A DNA stretch of 53,360 nucleotides from a virus (lineage: Duplodnaviria; Caudoviricetes). Within the stretch, counting starts at the first letter, position 1. Each line of letters starts with the position of its first letter. Positions 45,325 to 52,522 of this stretch are shown one piece after another. Position numbers and translations under genes: made by a program. The stretch is taken from IMG/VR virus record IMGVR_UViG_3300048694_000840, positions 1 through 53,360 of that record, one strand, 5' to 3'. The notes beneath the pieces are model-generated. The model searched no databases. It saw only the letters and a program-made list of their open reading frames with translations, and was not told the DNA's origin.

Positions 45325-45330
45325 ATTGAA

Positions 45331-45395
45331 TGGAGCGGTCACCACGATTTCCACGTAGATACCAGGTGGACCCTGATATTGTTAAAAACGACCGC
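45331..45395 (-). ncRNA. D-armless tRNA-Gly-like RNA
   Basis: GCGGTCG/TGACCGC acceptor plus TCCA; no D stem; hairpin loop GTCCA; T-like arm CTACG-TGGAAAT-CGTGG. Confidence 0.6.
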
Positions 45396-45402
45396 ATAAA
45401 AT

Positions 45403-45475: not shown

Positions 45476-45477
45476 AT

Positions 45478-45584
45478 ATCATTTTGAAATATACTAAATC
45501 TGCACTTTTTCAGCCGGCGCTATCTACTATTACGTAGCCTACGGGCAGTCCTTGACCGGTATTCATAGTATACTTCAAAATGAT
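45478..45584 (-). ncRNA. Candidate structured ncRNA closed by a 19 bp stem
   Basis: Arms 45478-45496 and 45566-45584; the single mismatch is G-U on the minus strand. Confidence 0.5.
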
Positions 45585-45611
45585 GCCTATTATATAGGCA
45601 CCACCCCGTTA

Positions 45612-47048
45612 TCAAATAACTTTGTAACGGTCATCCATGATGGTTTTAAGCATCACGGCTTCTGGTGTGAAACCATCTAGGTCTGCACTCAGCAAAGGTT
45701 TCACGATTGCTGGTGAGAATCCAGATACCAGGGCAGTACCAGACTTGTCAAACTTCACTGGTGCATTACCATATGAAGCATTCAAGTTCCAGAATACTAC
45801 TTTCGGAATTTCGTATCCTGCTTCTTGGTACTTACGTGCAATCATTTCAATTGCACTATCGTCATGAGTAACACATTGGTTAAACTGCATGTCGGACAGA
45901 ATCAATACCATGTCTGGCATTTCTTCTTGTGGTACATTACCTTCTACAGCAACATCAAGAATTTTCTTGAAAGCCGCATGTAGATTGGTAGACATATCCC
46001 AGCTAGATTTAACCATTTGGTCAATCTTCTGGTTGATGTTGCCCTTAAGGTGCAACAATTCTGGTGTGCTAGAGAAAGTCAGGAATGTATCCTTAAACTT
46101 ACCCTTGTTCTTGTCTGCAAGGTATAGACCAAGCGAAACAGAAACATCCAAACAAGTCAAATCAGACTTAGATTGGTAACCACCTGCTTTGCAGGTCATA
46201 GAACCAGATACGTCTACCAAAGGTAGAATGTTTGCATCACTAACATAGTTAGGCAATGCGTTCCATTGTGCTTCGATCAAGTCCAATTCGGTCTTGTCGA
46301 AATTGGTGTAGTGGCTGATACGACCCTTCAATACATCATATGGGTATGCCACAGATGCATTGACCTTCACTTCCATGATACGATCCTTAGGATCTTTCAT
46401 GAGTTCGGCCACATATTCGCCATACTTTGTAGTATTGCGGTTGAAGGCCTTCTTATAACGAGCAGTCGCTACAGAAGGAACATGGCTGAAGTTAATGGCA
46501 TCCCATTCTTTAGCACACATTTGGGTTTCAACAACCTTGGTCATTTCAACCAAGGACTTACGGTAGAATTTTGGTGACATTCCGAAGAAAGCACGGATTT
46601 CTGCCGCAATAGGTCCTTTGCGTGGAGTCCACTTTGCAGCCAAACCATTACGAGAACGCAATGCGTCACCCAACATGGTATAAGCCAAGGACTTCATCAC
46701 ATCGGATTGGAAAACAAAAATGTCATCCCAACGACCAAGTTCAGGAACTTTGGCCAAGAGAGCCTTAGCGGCTTCAACATCAGTCTTTTCCAAAAAACGG
46801 AGGATGTTACGGAACGATTCACGTTCACCAGCACCACCACGTGCATCACGAGCCCATGCAGCGACACGGAGTGCCAACTCACGGTTCTCAACCAATGCAG
46901 CGGTAAATGCAGGAACAATATCCTTACCACGGCTTGCACCAATGTTGTAGAACAGGTCTACAACCGCATTAGCGGTGGATTTATGAGCCTTCATACCGTT
47001 GGCGGTACGGGCTTCTTGATTCACAACGGCGTTAACAAAAGTGTTCAT
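45612..47048 (-). CDS. Ro60/TROVE-like helical + VWA protein (DUF2828-like)
   Basis: RDARGGAGER, GRWDD, AAKWTPR, MIDAS DVSGSM, LSDMQF, VFWNL, SGFSP; start MNTF after an AAGGA RBS. Confidence 0.8.
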   Translation of the reverse strand: MNTFVNAVVNQEARTANGMKAHKSTANAVVDLFYNIGASRGKDIVPAFTAALVENRELALRVAAWARDARGGAGERESFRNILRFLEKTDVEAAKALLAKVPELGRWDDIFVFQSDVMKSLAYTMLGDALRSRNGLAAKWTPRKGPIAAEIRAFFGMSPKFYRKSLVEMTKVVETQMCAKEWDAINFSHVPSVATARYKKAFNRNTTKYGEYVAELMKDPKDRIMEVKVNASVAYPYDVLKGRISHYTNFDKTELDLIEAQWNALPNYVSDANILPLVDVSGSMTCKAGGYQSKSDLTCLDVSVSLGLYLADKNKGKFKDTFLTFSSTPELLHLKGNINQKIDQMVKSSWDMSTNLHAAFKKILDVAVEGNVPQEEMPDMVLILSDMQFNQCVTHDDSAIEMIARKYQEAGYEIPKVVFWNLNASYGNAPVKFDKSGTALVSGFSPAIVKPLLSADLDGFTPEAVMLKTIMDDRYKVI

Positions 47049-47067: not shown

Positions 47068-47123
47068 ACAGGTTACGCTTTGCTTTTTTTCATAAAAGTT
47101 GGTGAATTGCTGAAAGTAACCTA
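47068..47123 (-). ncRNA. CAGCAA-stem RNA copy 1 (short cargo)
   Basis: AGGTTAC-TTT-CAGCAA ... GTAACCT-GTT. Confidence 0.7.
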
Positions 47124-47128
47124 AAAAC

Positions 47129-47307
47129 AACTGGATGATCCGAGTACCGTAATTTATTTTCTGGTTGCCATGTGTATATACTCACAACCCTATTCAATGT
47201 TCGTCATTGAAACCGATCCAATATTCAACTGGCACTATCCTATATTCTACAGGCAATATCGCTTATTAGGCGCTTTCGGTATTAGTTAAATTGCTGTAAT
47301 CATCCAA
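47129..47307 (-). ncRNA. CAGCAA-stem RNA copy 2 (multi-hairpin cargo)
   Basis: TGGATGA-TTA-CAGCAA ... TCATCCA-GTT; internal TACCG/CGGTA stem and several hairpins, e.g. TTCAATG-ACGAA-CATTGAA. Confidence 0.7.
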
Positions 47308-47313
47308 AAAATC

Positions 47314-47500
47314 AACAGGTAAGTTTCCTACTTTTTGTTTACAGAGAGAAATCGAAACTCTCTTTGCTAAGGCCTATTTCAGTAGAAACCTTCTACGCAC
47401 TCGGTCAAAACTCTGTGCTCCAGTTAACTACCATAGGTTGATAGCGATCAGATGCGGATTTTAAACCGCTAGCTTGATTGTTTTTGCTGAACCTTACCTA
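47314..47500 (-). ncRNA. CAGCAA-stem RNA copy 3 (multi-hairpin cargo with T-loop-like hairpin)
   Basis: AGGTAAG-GTT-CAGCAA ... CTTACCT-GTT; AGAGAG-TTTCGATTT-CTCTCT. Confidence 0.7.
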
Positions 47501-48275: not shown

Positions 48276-48358
48276 TGGTGCGGGTAGACGGATTCGAACC
48301 ATCACGCACTAGGCGGGAGATTTTAAGTCTCCTGTGTCTACCATTTCACCATACCCGC
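48276..48358 (-). tRNA. tRNA-Leu(TAA)
   Basis: GGAGA-CTTAAAA-TCTCC; long variable arm; ACCA. Confidence 0.9.
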
Positions 48359-49173
48359 AATTTTTTCCTATAGATTAATGCAGCAGCACCAATCGCACTA
48401 CCTGGATCACCAGGATTTTTAGGAACAAATATATTATATCCCATATCTATCAGTTTGGCAACAGCCAAACTATTGAAAGCCACACCACCAGAAAAACAAA
48501 TATTTTTATGGTGATAATTTTTAAAAACCTGCAACAATTTGTATTCAAGTAAAGCTTGACACGTTGCGGCCAAATCTTCTGAATTATAACCAGAATAGAA
48601 ACCTTTGCAACCTTTATGGTTGTTTCTATGTTCCAATTGTTCATTCATATCCAACAACAATTCAGGAATAATTTTACCTGTGATTGATAACTTCATGAAT
48701 TTATTTTCGTCACAGTTAGGTTTCATTCCAATAAGTTGGACTATCGAACTATAAAACAAACCAAAACTAAAAGGATATCTTCTAGAATATAGTTTTTTAT
48801 ATGTCGCATTTCCATTTTCATACTTTGCATTCCAGACACTTAATGTATCCCATTCACCTATAGAATCTGCAACAATTATATTTGCATCATCAAAGATTGA
48901 AGTTTGAAATGCATTAGCAGCATGTGACAAATGGTGACTGAAATAATACTTTGGCTTCAACTTCAAGTTGATATTCTTGAATGATGTTTTGTATTGACCT
49001 GCATAGAATTGTCTTGTTCTTTTCAGAAAAGGCTTTTCATAGAAAGCAATCTCATCTGTATGGACAAGTGAAGTATCTATGTTTGTAGGATAAAAAACAC
49101 ATTCACCATCTTTAATGATGGCCAAAGATTCAGTATGAAAACCTTGAGTGAACCCAACGAATTCATTCTTCAT
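48346..49173 (-). CDS. Carbamoyltransferase N-terminal (Kae1-like) domain protein, CmcH/NodU family
   Basis: FYEKP, HHLSHAA, DSIGE, GGVAFN, PGDPGSAIGAA; no C-terminal domain. Confidence 0.8.
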   Translation of the reverse strand: MKNEFVGFTQGFHTESLAIIKDGECVFYPTNIDTSLVHTDEIAFYEKPFLKRTRQFYAGQYKTSFKNINLKLKPKYYFSHHLSHAANAFQTSIFDDANIIVADSIGEWDTLSVWNAKYENGNATYKKLYSRRYPFSFGLFYSSIVQLIGMKPNCDENKFMKLSITGKIIPELLLDMNEQLEHRNNHKGCKGFYSGYNSEDLAATCQALLEYKLLQVFKNYHHKNICFSGGVAFNSLAVAKLIDMGYNIFVPKNPGDPGSAIGAAALIYRKKLRVW

Positions 49174-49905: not shown

Positions 49906-49980
49906 TGGCCTGCCGTGCAGGAATCGAACCCACATTCTAGAGGTAGAAGCTCTATGTATTATCCATTATACTAACGGCAG
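49906..49980 (-). tRNA. tRNA-Arg(TCT)
   Basis: TAGAG-CTTCTAC-CTCTA; GCCA. Confidence 0.88.
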
Positions 49981-49989
49981 ATTAAATTG

Positions 49990-50568
49990 TCATGATAATT
50001 TTTCAATAATTTTTAATACATTATCTGTTATACCATCTGAAGAGGTGTTAAAAGAAATAATTGTTTTTCTTTTATCCGACATATTTGCAGGTCCTCTATG
50101 AATGACATAACTAGGAAAGAAGATAATATCTCCTTCTTTAACATCTAAATGAATTTTTCTATTCAAAGAAGGATCCACCAATTCTGTGGGTGCTGATAAC
50201 TTGTCCATCTCCACGTAATAGACGGCAGTAAAGTTACTTCCATGAACGTGCCATCCATGATACGATTCTTTTTCATATTGTTGAAACCAAATCGCTTCAA
50301 TTAAAAACCGAGAGTATCCCATTTTTGTAGAAATACCATTCAATTTATCCTGTAAAATGGGATAAAAATATTTTACCCATTCTCTATTCCGATCTGTTGA
50401 TTTTGACCAATCCAATTTAGTTACATTCTCAAACGGATTTAAATCGGAATGTTTTTGAGTTGATTCGGAATCGGCTTCAGAGAATAACATCAATAATTTA
50501 TTTTTAATAGTCGGATGATTTTCCATCGTTGTTTTAACTATGTATGATGTAAATTCTATAAATTCCAT
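49990..50568 (-). CDS. 2OG-Fe(II) oxygenase-like protein
   Basis: WFQQY...HGWHVH...FTAVYYV...GDIIFFPSYVIH...KTIISFN. Confidence 0.82.
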   Translation of the reverse strand: MEFIEFTSYIVKTTMENHPTIKNKLLMLFSEADSESTQKHSDLNPFENVTKLDWSKSTDRNREWVKYFYPILQDKLNGISTKMGYSRFLIEAIWFQQYEKESYHGWHVHGSNFTAVYYVEMDKLSAPTELVDPSLNRKIHLDVKEGDIIFFPSYVIHRGPANMSDKRKTIISFNTSSDGITDNVLKIIEKLS

Positions 50569-50581
50569 TTTAATTCTCAAT

Positions 50582-51014: not shown

Positions 51015-51091
51015 TGGTACCCCAGGTGGGATTCGAGCCCACAAAATTCTGCTTTTGAGACAGACACGTATACCTATTCCGTCACCGGGGC
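51015..51091 (-). tRNA. tRNA-Leu(CAA), short variable loop
   Basis: TCTGT-CTCAAAA-GCAGA; 77 nt; ACCA. Confidence 0.85.
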
Positions 51092-51097
51092 AAATAC

Positions 51098-51192
51098 AAC
51101 AGGATCGTTTAACGCCGATTCGAACGGCTCCGTTTGCTTAGAAGGCAAATGCTCTACCATTGAGCTAGTTAATTTTTGCTGAACCGATCCTA
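51098..51192 (-). ncRNA. CAGCAA-stem RNA copy 4 with an embedded tRNA-Arg(TCT)-like cloverleaf
   Basis: AGGATCG-GTT-CAGCAA...TTAAC-TA-GCTCAATGGTAGAGC-A-TTTGC-CTTCTAA-GCAAA-CGGA-GCCG-TTCGAAT-CGGC-GTTAA-A-CGATCCT-GTT; no CCA. Confidence 0.8.
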
Positions 51193-51196
51193 AACT

Positions 51197-51272
51197 TGGT
51201 GCAACCCAGAGGAATCGAACCTCTTTCAACGGCTCTTCAGACCGCCGCTATGACCACATCAGCTAGAGTTGC
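51197..51272 (-). tRNA. tRNA-Phe(GAA)
   Basis: GCGGT-CTGAAGA-GCCGT; ACCA. Confidence 0.88.
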
Positions 51273-51468: not shown

Positions 51469-51945
51469 TCATGCTTGTTCAGCAAGAATACGCTTCAAAC
51501 GGTCTGCACAGAAAGAAGCGGCAGGAGCATCTGGTTTCACCATAGGTGTCATGTTACATGTACCTTTGATATAACCAATTGCTTGTTGCACAACACAAGA
51601 AGAACCGAATTCTTCATCCTTGTTCAAGTCCAAATGAACTTCAACATGGAAATCTTCTAGTGCTTCTTGCAATTCTTGGAACAATTCTGAAACCTTGTAT
51701 ACTTCTGTCATCAGACGCATAGCAGGTTTGCTTTTCTTATGGTCGTAATCCAATTCACGATCAACATAACCAAAGATTTTACAACCATGACGGCCATCAA
51801 TATGAACAACAACAGCCAATGCATAGTCAGCATACCATACGCCGTTAACTCTTACTCTTTCGGAGTCGGCACCCAGATATACACGGGTATCAGGTCCTTG
51901 TGTTGCAAGGAATTGTCTGACTTCATTTATGTTAAAGTTTTTCAT
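51469..51945 (-). CDS. RNase H-like YkuK/DUF458 family protein
   Basis: VYLGADS...RLMTEV..V..L...EVHLDLN...SS...KPDAPAASFCADR; start MKNF after an AAGGTG RBS. Confidence 0.8.
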   Translation of the reverse strand: MKNFNINEVRQFLATQGPDTRVYLGADSERVRVNGVWYADYALAVVVHIDGRHGCKIFGYVDRELDYDHKKSKPAMRLMTEVYKVSELFQELQEALEDFHVEVHLDLNKDEEFGSSCVVQQAIGYIKGTCNMTPMVKPDAPAASFCADRLKRILAEQA

Positions 51946-52047: not shown

Positions 52048-52111
52048 AACAGGATCGTTTTTGCGTTTTCAATTACAAGTTGAATGCTTTTTGGTTGCTG
52101 AACCGATCCTA
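52048..52111 (-). ncRNA. CAGCAA-stem RNA copy 5 with an isolated anticodon arm (TGT)
   Basis: AGGATCG-GTT-CAGCAA ... TTCAA-CTTGTAA-TTGAA ... CGATCCT-GTT. Confidence 0.75.
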
Positions 52112-52272: not shown

Positions 52273-52278
52273 AAAATA

Positions 52279-52356
52279 TGGCGCAGACCAAAGGATTCGA
52301 ACCTTTGCGGGAATCTAGAATGTGCCGGACATGCCGGCTACCCCACCATTATCTGC
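52279..52356 (-). ncRNA. Aberrant tRNA-like RNA (acceptor + T arm + CCA, non-canonical core)
   Basis: GCAGAT/GTCTGC-G-CCA; AAAGG-TTCGAAT-CCTTT; core GTGGGG/TCCCGC enclosing GCCGG-CATGT-CCGGC. Confidence 0.6.
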
Positions 52357-52362
52357 ATAACT

Positions 52363-52437: not shown

Positions 52438-52522
52438 ATATAAAAACACACTCAAACGGGTCTGTTCTCCTATCCCCGCACAGCCGTTCCAGCCAGGGTA
52501 GGGTAGAGTATGTTTTTATATG
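52437..52522 (-). ncRNA. Candidate structured ncRNA closed by a 17 bp stem
   Basis: CATATAAAAACATACTC / GAGTGTGTTTTTATATG (one U-G on the minus strand) around a GC-rich core. Confidence 0.5.

Follow-up and report, generated by a model that had tools for sequence, protein, structure and literature searches.

We analysed copy 4, one of five small RNA elements that share a terminal stem and a CAGCAA motif in a Caudoviricetes (Duplodnaviria) genome fragment, IMG/VR record IMGVR_UViG_3300048694_000840 (positions 1 to 53,360, the whole stretch of DNA analysed, hereafter the window). The element (51092-51196; this and every other window feature given below lies on the minus strand) takes up the entire spacer between tRNA-Phe and tRNA-Leu(CAA) and encloses a cloverleaf resembling tRNA-Arg(UCU). 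Copy 4 is very probably a tRNA mimic that cannot be charged, carried on a Y-RNA-like scaffold. More specifically, we consider it probable that it serves as a scaffold RNA of a phage Ro60-like ribonucleoprotein and is bound by the Ro-like protein encoded in the same region, and that it is not a tRNA gene. The RNAs with the stem and CAGCAA look like Y-RNA analogues of this protein, because a predicted Ro60 fold is encoded next door and the RNA family tracks that gene.

Anatomy of copy 4

Read from 5' to 3', copy 4 consists of a short leader, the 5' stem strand AGGAUCG (51185-51191, pairing with 51101-51107), GUU, the CAGCAA motif (51176-51181, 3 nucleotides (nt) past the 5' stem strand), AAA, the cloverleaf, one A, the 3' stem strand CGAUCCU (51101-51107) and the GUUGUAUUU tail, with the conserved GUUGU at 51096-51100. 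CAGCAA is presumed to be a single-stranded protein-recognition element. The covariance model R1, built from 12 copy-4-like sequences, scored the whole element at 85.8 bits. The cargo (51106-51174), called as tRNA-Arg(tct) by ARAGORN, possesses U8-A9 (51167-51166), a D arm GCTC/AATGGTA/GAGC (51165-51151) with a stem of 4 base pairs (bp) and the loop AAUGGUA, an anticodon arm TTTGC/CTTCTAA/GCAAA (51149-51133) with a 5-bp stem, the loop CUUCUAA (51138-51144) and the anticodon UCU (51140-51142), and a T arm GCCG/TTCGAAT/CGGC (51128-51114) with a 4-bp stem and the loop UUCGAAU. All these cloverleaf parts had been named in an earlier note on this DNA and each is present on the minus strand. The sequence likewise bears out its description of a 5-bp acceptor (TTAAC/GTTAA, 51172-51168 with 51113-51109) that runs into the terminal stem with no CCA end: read directly, the acceptor is followed by one A and then by the 3' stem strand, so that discriminator and CCA are both absent. 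To be charged, a tRNA requires an acceptor of 7 bp, a discriminator and a 3' CCA, either encoded or added, and copy 4 has 5 bp and no CCA.

The final 8.5 kb of the window is a minus-strand phage tRNA array in which ARAGORN called 21 tRNAs, the cargo of copy 4 among them. The other 20 tRNAs of the window all have a 7-bp acceptor and an encoded CCA. The tRNA-Phe(GAA) gene (51197-51272) ends 6 nt upstream of the copy 4 stem and tRNA-Leu(CAA) (51015-51091) starts 10 nt past it. ARAGORN also found the separate, normal tRNA-Arg(TCT) that the earlier note had placed at 49906-49980, with its 7-bp acceptor and encoded CCA, and copy 4 would therefore be redundant as a decoder. The cargo shares only 54% identity with this genuine tRNA-Arg(UCU), which rules out a recent copy of the phage's own tRNA-Arg; identity as a ribozyme or intron was rejected, as Rfam gave no support for it. 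The Rfam tRNA family (RF00005) matched copy 4 at 50.5 bits (E 6e-8), above its gathering score of 29. Together with the ARAGORN call, this match would suit an unusual functional tRNA-Arg(UCU) whose flanks are trimmed and which is CCA-tailed and charged despite its short acceptor. A precedent for such processing comes from the Mycobacterium smegmatis YrlA RNA, which has a 7-bp acceptor and is reported to be cut by RNase P and to receive CCA (YrlA structure preprint 2018; here and below, statements on published Y, YrlA and Class I RNAs follow the accessible parts of the sources). This possibility was weighed against the orthologues of copy 4.

Conservation of copy 4 in related phages

The comparison drew on 80 related IMG/VR loci with a Ro-like protein of 69-90% identity which, together with the window, gave 81 protein-anchored sources. 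In these, R1 detected 15 copy-4-type RNAs at 85.8 bits or more, the next best match scoring 51.8 bits. A pattern scan of IMG/VR enlarged the set to 52 matches with 32 distinct sequences. Among the 32 distinct orthologues, 97.0% of the cells were paired and 18 of the 25 pairs were changed on both sides, a result equalled by none of 500 shuffles, and in a slid control, with the partners moved by 1-3 columns, pairing fell to 33-45%. The helix of the terminal stem was paired in 99.6% of the cells with 5 of its 7 pairs covarying, and CAGCAA was kept in 31/32 sequences. Unaided, RNAalifold recovered the terminal stem and motif region together with the D, anticodon and T arms (21 pairs, 14 of them compensatory) and did not predict the acceptor helix. 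In the acceptor position, the 32 orthologues have a helix of 3 bp in 20, 4 bp in 6 and 5 bp in 4 cases; the rows of the window and of locus L090 were misread in this count, as the alignment shifts their T stem, and the 5 bp of the window comes from direct reading. A-rich linkers lie on both sides of this helix, and CCA is absent from all 32 sequences. In most orthologues the D arm is reduced, its loop being 5 nt long, and the 8-9 linker is missing; of the 15 elements from the protein-anchored sources, ARAGORN recognises no more than 4 as tRNAs. The genomic position is also shared, since tRNA-Phe lies 5-7 nt upstream in 10/15 loci and tRNA-Leu(CAA) 6-10 nt downstream in 8/15. In 11 of the 12 loci that carry a copy-4-type RNA, its anticodon is also borne by a genuine tRNA.

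Judged from these alignments, copy 4 is conserved as a structure and not as a chargeable tRNA, in agreement with the proposal of the earlier note that the cargo cannot be charged. The acceptors of 3-5 bp and the missing CCA, set against the CCA encoded by every real tRNA of the window, along with the normal tRNA-Arg(UCU) in the same array, the reduced D arms and the few ARAGORN calls, make a functional tRNA-Arg(UCU) very unlikely. A tRNA pseudogene, caught in a repeated element and devoid of function, would account for the missing tRNA essentials and for the repeat-rich region. The earlier note had named random decay among homologues as the sign of such a pseudogene and this was not seen: all arms show compensatory changes between phages whose Ro-like proteins are 70-90% identical, the position is syntenic, and 6 of the 7 anticodon loop positions are conserved in the 12 distinct protein-anchored orthologues, the middle base of the anticodon alone varying. 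Covariation together with the retention of a short acceptor without CCA thus argues that copy 4 is not a decaying pseudogene, a reading that we hold to be extremely improbable.

The CAGCAA handle and its linkage to the Ro-like gene

We searched the window with a pattern consisting of a G-initiated 6-bp stem, a short spacer, CAGCAA, 10-300 nt of cargo, the complementary strand and [U/A]G(U). Exactly five elements with the stem, CAGCAA and UGU were returned, all on the minus strand, which agrees with the numbering of the present element as the fourth copy; a near-identical scanner gave on average 0.2 matches in mononucleotide-shuffled controls. Common to the five copies is a handle formed by a terminal stem of 6-7 bp, CAGCAA and a UGUU tail. 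Copies 1-3 stand in tandem directly upstream of the open reading frame at 45612-47048, which encodes the Ro-like protein. Copy 1 (47071-47121) is short, with 51 nt from stem to stem, and ends 22 nt before the ATG of this gene; copy 2 (47133-47305) holds a structured cargo of 150 nt and of unassigned kind (z-score against shuffles -2.13); and copy 3 (47318-47498) holds a long cargo (150-160 nt) that includes a T-arm-like hairpin. Cargos of the copy 3 type in related loci also have this hairpin, and immediately ahead of their 3' stem strand runs a conserved A-rich block, AAAAAGUAGAAAAC. Copy 4, placed by the scanner at 51102-51190, measures 89 nt from stem to stem. Between tRNA-Ile and tRNA-Trp lies the short copy 5 (52052-52109), which matches copy 4 exactly in stem and motif; each of these two elements occupies a whole inter-tRNA spacer.

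The handle follows the gene across phages. In the 80 related loci, the scanner found 262 elements on the strand of the gene vs 6 on the opposite strand, with at least one element in 78 loci. Among the 73 loci with at least 700 nt of upstream DNA, 71 have an element ending no more than 600 nt from the gene start. A match in locus L004 was left out, as its 315-nt span came from a chance stem around a genuine tRNA-Gly. On four distant phage genomes R1 gave weak matches of 23-33 bits, with none in Gardann; the model is too specific to the clade of the window and the pattern scanner was therefore used on whole genomes. The handle also adjoins the gene in distant cultured phages. In scans of the complete genomes of three unrelated ones (shuffle mean 0.4 matches), 4/5 matches in E. 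coli phage Alf5, 2/3 in Mycobacterium phage Gardann and 3/4 in Listeria phage LMTA-57 lie about 1.2 kb or nearer to the gene and on its strand, and in the Listeria phage three copies stand directly upstream of it.

Many elements are embedded among tRNAs: of 266, 101 have a tRNA ending 5-13 nt upstream, 88 have a tRNA starting 6-26 nt downstream and 63 abut another element. This arrangement suggests that the RNAs with the stem and CAGCAA are released by the enzymes that process tRNAs. It could also be taken to mean that the handle is merely processing or insulating punctuation of the array transcript, unrelated to the neighbouring protein gene, and that the cargo alone acts as an entry site for RNase P or RNase Z or as a tRNA-derived regulator. 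Elements placed exactly between tRNAs with gaps of 5-13 nt, the complete filling of two inter-tRNA spacers by copies 4 and 5, and structured spacers without the motif in the same array would all fit such a role. Nevertheless, the linkage to the gene persists where there is little or no tRNA array, as in the Listeria phage and across the 71/73 loci, and the motif, needless for a mere spacer hairpin, is conserved in phages of three bacterial phyla. We therefore consider punctuation improbable and retain the view that the handle belongs to the Ro-like protein.

A predicted Ro60 fold in the DUF2828/DUF7788 family

The presumed protein partner is a protein of 478 amino acids encoded at 45612-47048. 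In Pfam searches it matched only DUF7788 (9e-49) and DUF2828 (8e-19). Its AlphaFold model, built with 62 diverse homologues, reached a predicted local distance difference test score of 92.7 and a predicted template modelling score of 0.91, and presents the alpha-helical repeat ring with a von Willebrand factor A domain and metal ion-dependent adhesion site (vWA/MIDAS) that characterise Ro60/TROVE proteins. When the model was compared with the PDB by Foldseek, the best 12 matches were all Ro60 or TROVE-domain entries (frog, human, Deinococcus Rsr and Thermus phage phiLo), aligned over the full length with E values of 2e-9 to 1e-6, template modelling (TM) scores of 0.36-0.62 and 12-16% identity; isolated vWA/MIDAS domains ranked after them. 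The MIDAS residues D284, S286, S288, T359 and D391 (DxSxS...T...D) are invariant in the alignment. Hence the 478-residue protein is predicted to adopt the Ro60 fold.

The DUF2828 family is large, with 6069 clusters at E<=1e-3, and tblastn matched a family protein in 710 of 50,697 phage records, including FelixO1-like, KVP40-like, Campylobacter, Listeria, Staphylococcus, Enterococcus, Bacillus and Mycobacterium phages. In phages, family members are annotated as 'hypothetical', 'RNA-binding protein' or 'Ro-like RNA binding protein'. A protein atlas search for DUF2828 returned viral clusters only. The search for longer relatives yielded only two proteins, none of them from Dictyostelium: the fungal member P0272 and the metagenomic P0271 (905 amino acids), in which DUF2828 and DUF7788 are fused to PF13563 of the 2'-5' RNA ligase/2H phosphoesterase family. 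As far as domain matches tell, the latter fusion links the DUF2828 family to RNA-end chemistry. In Listeria phage LMTA-57, an annotated RtcB-type tRNA-splicing ligase gene (L084 7853-9064) lies 1.3 kb downstream of the DUF2828 gene, and a drum RNA (RF02958; 50.2 bits vs 43) is found in the tRNA array (L084 986-1084). RtcB, Rnl2-type ligase and CCA-adding enzyme families had no match in the window fragment, which is uninformative as the fragment is only 32% complete. A literature search on DUF2828, PF11443, UCP015417, IPR011205 and DUF7788, which did not cover the 2016 Burroughs and Aravind survey, returned no description of an RNA partner or function; that survey of RNA repair may already class DUF2828 with TROVE.

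The cargo slot and the variation of the anticodon

Among 200 distinct elements of the protein-anchored set, the cargo has no T arm in 133 (mostly elements of 50-60 nt) and consists of a T-arm-like hairpin only in 27. The YrlA layout, with a closed hairpin between T arm and D arm, is present in 19 elements. In 9 more this layout follows a full anticodon arm, giving a permuted tRNA with a closed acceptor (anticodons UAU in 5 and UCU, GCA, UUG and UAG in 1 each). The copy 4 layout was found in 12 elements, and the survey of anticodons in homologous cargos that the earlier note had called for returned UCU in 9, UUU in 2 and UAU in 1 of them. The wobble position is U in 20 of the 21 anticodons of the copy 4 and permuted layouts. 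Cargos resembling tRNA extend beyond the clade of the window: in phage Alf5, four CAGCAA RNAs follow the FelixO1-like DUF2828 gene, and one of them (L081 7427-7550) possesses the T arm, closed acceptor hairpin and D arm of the YrlA type.

Furthermore, in two independent pairs of loci the copy-4-type RNAs differ solely by C35 or U35, the middle anticodon base, namely L034 vs L009 with flanks 96.3% identical and L014 vs L098 with flanks 99.0% identical. A difference confined to this base is suggestive of, and no proof for, something that reads the anticodon, and these sequence comparisons thus suggest that some factor reads the anticodon of copy 4.

Likeness to known RNAs and particles

YrlA RNAs adjoin TROVE Ro60 genes and carry a GNCGAA-type motif (Chen et al. 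2014; YrlA structure preprint 2018), and the phiLo study described a CGAA motif in the Y RNA-like sequences of Thermus phage phiLo. In the 2018 structure preprint, YrlA mimics the T, D and acceptor parts of a tRNA, with a closed acceptor loop and, in the part accessible, no anticodon loop. The present RNAs resemble YrlA and Y RNAs in that they lie beside, and on the same strand as, the gene of a vWA/MIDAS ring protein with the Ro60 fold (here a predicted one), in that a brief conserved motif close to the 5' end accompanies their terminal stem, and in that their effector module mimics a tRNA (T arm, D arm and elbow) with no free CCA. They differ in the partner, which belongs to Pfam DUF2828 and DUF7788 instead of TROVE and is only 12-16% identical to Ro60, and in the motif, which is CAGCAA as opposed to the GNCGAA(N)G or CGAA described for YrlA. 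In addition, the Ro-binding stem takes the place of the anticodon stem in YrlA, whereas copy 4 keeps a full anticodon arm and has the handle in place of the acceptor end; the earlier note had drawn this contrast, which agrees with the accessible part of the 2018 structure preprint. The Rfam covariance models of YrlA and Y RNA (RF02553, RF00019) were not matched, and the YrlA family (RF02553) reached only 17.6 bits on copy 4 (gathering score 69, E 9.9), with a match that spans the neighbouring tRNA. The supplementary tables of Chen et al. 2014 reportedly list 22 phages with YrlA.

Among the Rfam matches listed, Class I RNA (RF01414) is the only family besides tRNA that matches the handle. Class I RNAs have a G-initiated 6-bp stem, an 11-nt motif (CCUUACAGCAA) beside the 5' strand, a variable interior and a CUGU end; the accessible literature describes them as restricted to dictyostelids and as bound by the RRM protein CIBP/Rnp1A, and an uncharacterised protein, DDB_G0281243, was pulled down with the Class I RNA DdR-21. 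The phage RNAs share with this description the G-initiated 6-bp stem, the ...ACAGCAA beside its 5' strand, the variable interior and the C-UGU end. The stem and UGU tail are present in all five window copies and only the last 6-8 letters of the Class I motif are shared. All RF01414 scores among the matches listed were below the gathering score of 41.5 (29.6 bits for copy 1 with the full model, 23.1 and 19.6 for copies of the Listeria phage). Copy 4 differs from Class I RNAs in that it has no RF01414 match, measures 89-105 nt vs 42-65 nt and carries a tRNA-like cargo. A literature search on Class I RNA, Dictyostelium and CAGCAA found no paper tying Class I RNAs to phages or bacteria.

With phage tRNAs copy 4 shares the cloverleaf arms, U8, G18G19, the T-loop elements, the CUUCUAA loop and the location in an array; it departs from them in its 5-bp acceptor, the lack of discriminator and CCA, and its enclosure by the handle. 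L-shaped mimics are used outside decoding in the tRNA-like domain of tmRNA, in plant-virus tRNA-like structures and in mascRNA. In tmRNA and the viral structures the CCA end remains chargeable and the anticodon loop is missing or substituted; copy 4 shows the opposite.

A proposed role for copy 4

The earlier note had inferred a protein-protected decoy for anticodon nucleases or other tRNA-targeting defences, or a tether for tRNA-binding enzymes; protection by a protein is indirectly supported by the Ro60 fold predicted for the product of the adjacent gene and by the way the RNA family tracks this gene in distant phages. We propose the following mode of action. A handle of terminal stem, CAGCAA and UGUU tail, common to the five RNAs of the window and to hundreds in related phages, would be bound by the Ro60-fold DUF2828/DUF7788 protein, and each RNA holds a different cargo between the two strands of its handle. 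Copy 4 would probably be excised from the array transcript by the enzymes that mature tRNA-Phe and tRNA-Leu, with 3' processing of tRNA-Phe setting its 5' end and RNase P at tRNA-Leu setting its 3' end. Its cargo would form an L-shaped tRNA mimic with an intact D/T elbow and a full UCU anticodon arm, and the acceptor, cut to 5 bp and running into the handle, would consequently permit neither CCA tailing nor charging. With its anticodon stem-loop the particle could then bait a factor that recognises U34-type loops (Arg-UCU, Lys-UUU, Ile-UAU). Anatomy, conservation and linkage to the gene are established here; binding by the protein, processing and what the bait engages are inferred. Our preferred target would be a host anticodon nuclease or another tRNA-directed defence, to be intercepted or sensed. 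Phage tRNA arrays have a known role in anticodon-nuclease conflicts, and we lean towards nucleases because of this role, the retained and switchable U34-type loops and the redundancy with genuine tRNAs. That the bait intercepts or senses host nucleases directed at anticodon loops is nevertheless a tentative suggestion, which we would not call probable.

The same particle might instead use the tRNA mimic as a tether that recruits a tRNA-handling enzyme to the Ro-like ring, for instance an exonuclease, a ligase for repair, an enzyme that modifies tRNA or, via its anticodon-binding domain, an aminoacyl-tRNA synthetase, with damaged or misfolded tRNAs as the target. Published precedents are the Y RNA that tethers Ro60 to PNPase and the modification of YrlA by TruB and DusA. 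The RtcB gene near the DUF2828 gene of the Listeria phage, the relative fused to a 2H phosphoesterase and the PF04308 gene beside the system in Vibrio phage KVP40 and in the window would also be in line with a tether. None of the findings separates tether from decoy; the 32%-complete window fragment gave no match for ligase, PNK-like or CCA-adding genes, and switching of the middle anticodon base fits an arms race better than housekeeping. We regard a tether as rather unlikely and continue to prefer the decoy directed at anticodon nucleases.

Several observations weigh against the interpretation of copy 4 as a structured RNA of a Ro60-like particle. Folded as a single sequence, copy 4 was no more stable than shuffles (z-score -1.19, with 26/200 shuffles as stable), and the support for its structure is therefore comparative and not thermodynamic. 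The pattern that supplied 44 of the covariation loci fixed parts of the anticodon arm and the T loop, so that invariance there is partly by construction, the orthologue alignment was fitted to our own model, and 8-9 of the 32 sequences lack pairing at the outer positions of the D stem. With regard to the protein, Pfam did not detect the TROVE signature (PF05731) in the 478-residue protein, phmmer returned no match to PDB sequences, and the fold match is moderate, with a root-mean-square deviation of 6.7-8.5 Å for most Ro60 entries and of 12 Å at a TM score of 0.36 for Deinococcus Rsr. Copy 4 lies 4 kb from the gene, and its link to the protein rests on the handle it has in common with copies 1-3. 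The fragment, 32% complete, yielded no gene for an anticodon nuclease, a ligase or a CCA-adding enzyme, and the switching of the anticodon could be due to chance, C-to-U being the commonest mutation. Finally, all 24 sequencing runs listed are of DNA, and the RNA, its ends and its binding by the protein are predictions.

Other features of the array

Two further spacers of the array hold structured elements. The one between tRNA-Arg(acg) and tRNA-Met (52273-52362) is tRNA-like, with a 6-bp terminal stem, a canonical T arm (AAAGG/UUCGAAU/CCUUU) and a GCCA end; it was not called as a tRNA by ARAGORN or Rfam and lacks the CAGCAA handle. In the other, between tRNA-Gly(tcc) and tRNA-Met (45325-45402), a 7-bp terminal stem precedes UCCA and two hairpins lie inside (z-score -3.05, 1/200 shuffles); it may be an armless or degenerate tRNA-like RNA. 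In addition, long stable hairpin RNAs were found in the array at 52438-52520 (15-bp terminal stem, z-score -4.26, 0/200 shuffles) and immediately downstream of the Ro-like gene at 45476-45611 (17-19-bp terminal stem, z-score -3.13, 0/200 shuffles). A gene of the PF04308 family (RNaseH_like/YkuK) lies between copies 4 and 5 (51469-51945), and in Vibrio phage KVP40 a PF04308 gene (L082 6485-7015) directly follows the DUF2828 gene; its product may be a conserved partner of the system. Two other array genes, at 48349-49173 and 49993-50580, matched Carbam_trans_N (Kae1/TsaD-like fold family) and 2OG-Fe(II) oxygenase, respectively, and may encode RNA or tRNA modification enzymes.

Significance

To our knowledge, Ro60-Y RNA particles are the only case of a ring protein steered by a tRNA-like non-coding RNA. 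Here, an RNA handle of another kind is linked to another, uncharacterised protein family for which the same fold is predicted, and this association of a family of Ro60-fold proteins with a family of modular RNAs is apparently undescribed. The cargo slot presents a graded series of tRNA mimics, from the T arm only, through the YrlA-like layout and the permuted form with an anticodon arm, to the full cloverleaf of copy 4. Such mimics are counted as tRNA genes by tRNA finders. A far-reaching extension, which we put forward as speculative and rather doubtful, is that DUF2828/DUF7788 proteins form a second widespread Ro60-like branch (710/50,697 phage records, plus fungi and plants) with the RNAs of the stem and CAGCAA as their Y RNAs and Class I RNAs as eukaryotic members, and that copy 4 is a bait switchable between UCU, UUU and UAU against anticodon nucleases. 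As the system is present in tractable phages (FelixO1-like coliphages, KVP40, and Listeria, Staphylococcus and Mycobacterium smegmatis phages), binding, processing and counter-defence are directly testable. If true, our interpretation would provide a first function for DUF2828, carried by 710 phage records, and a possible origin for the Class I RNAs of Dictyostelium.

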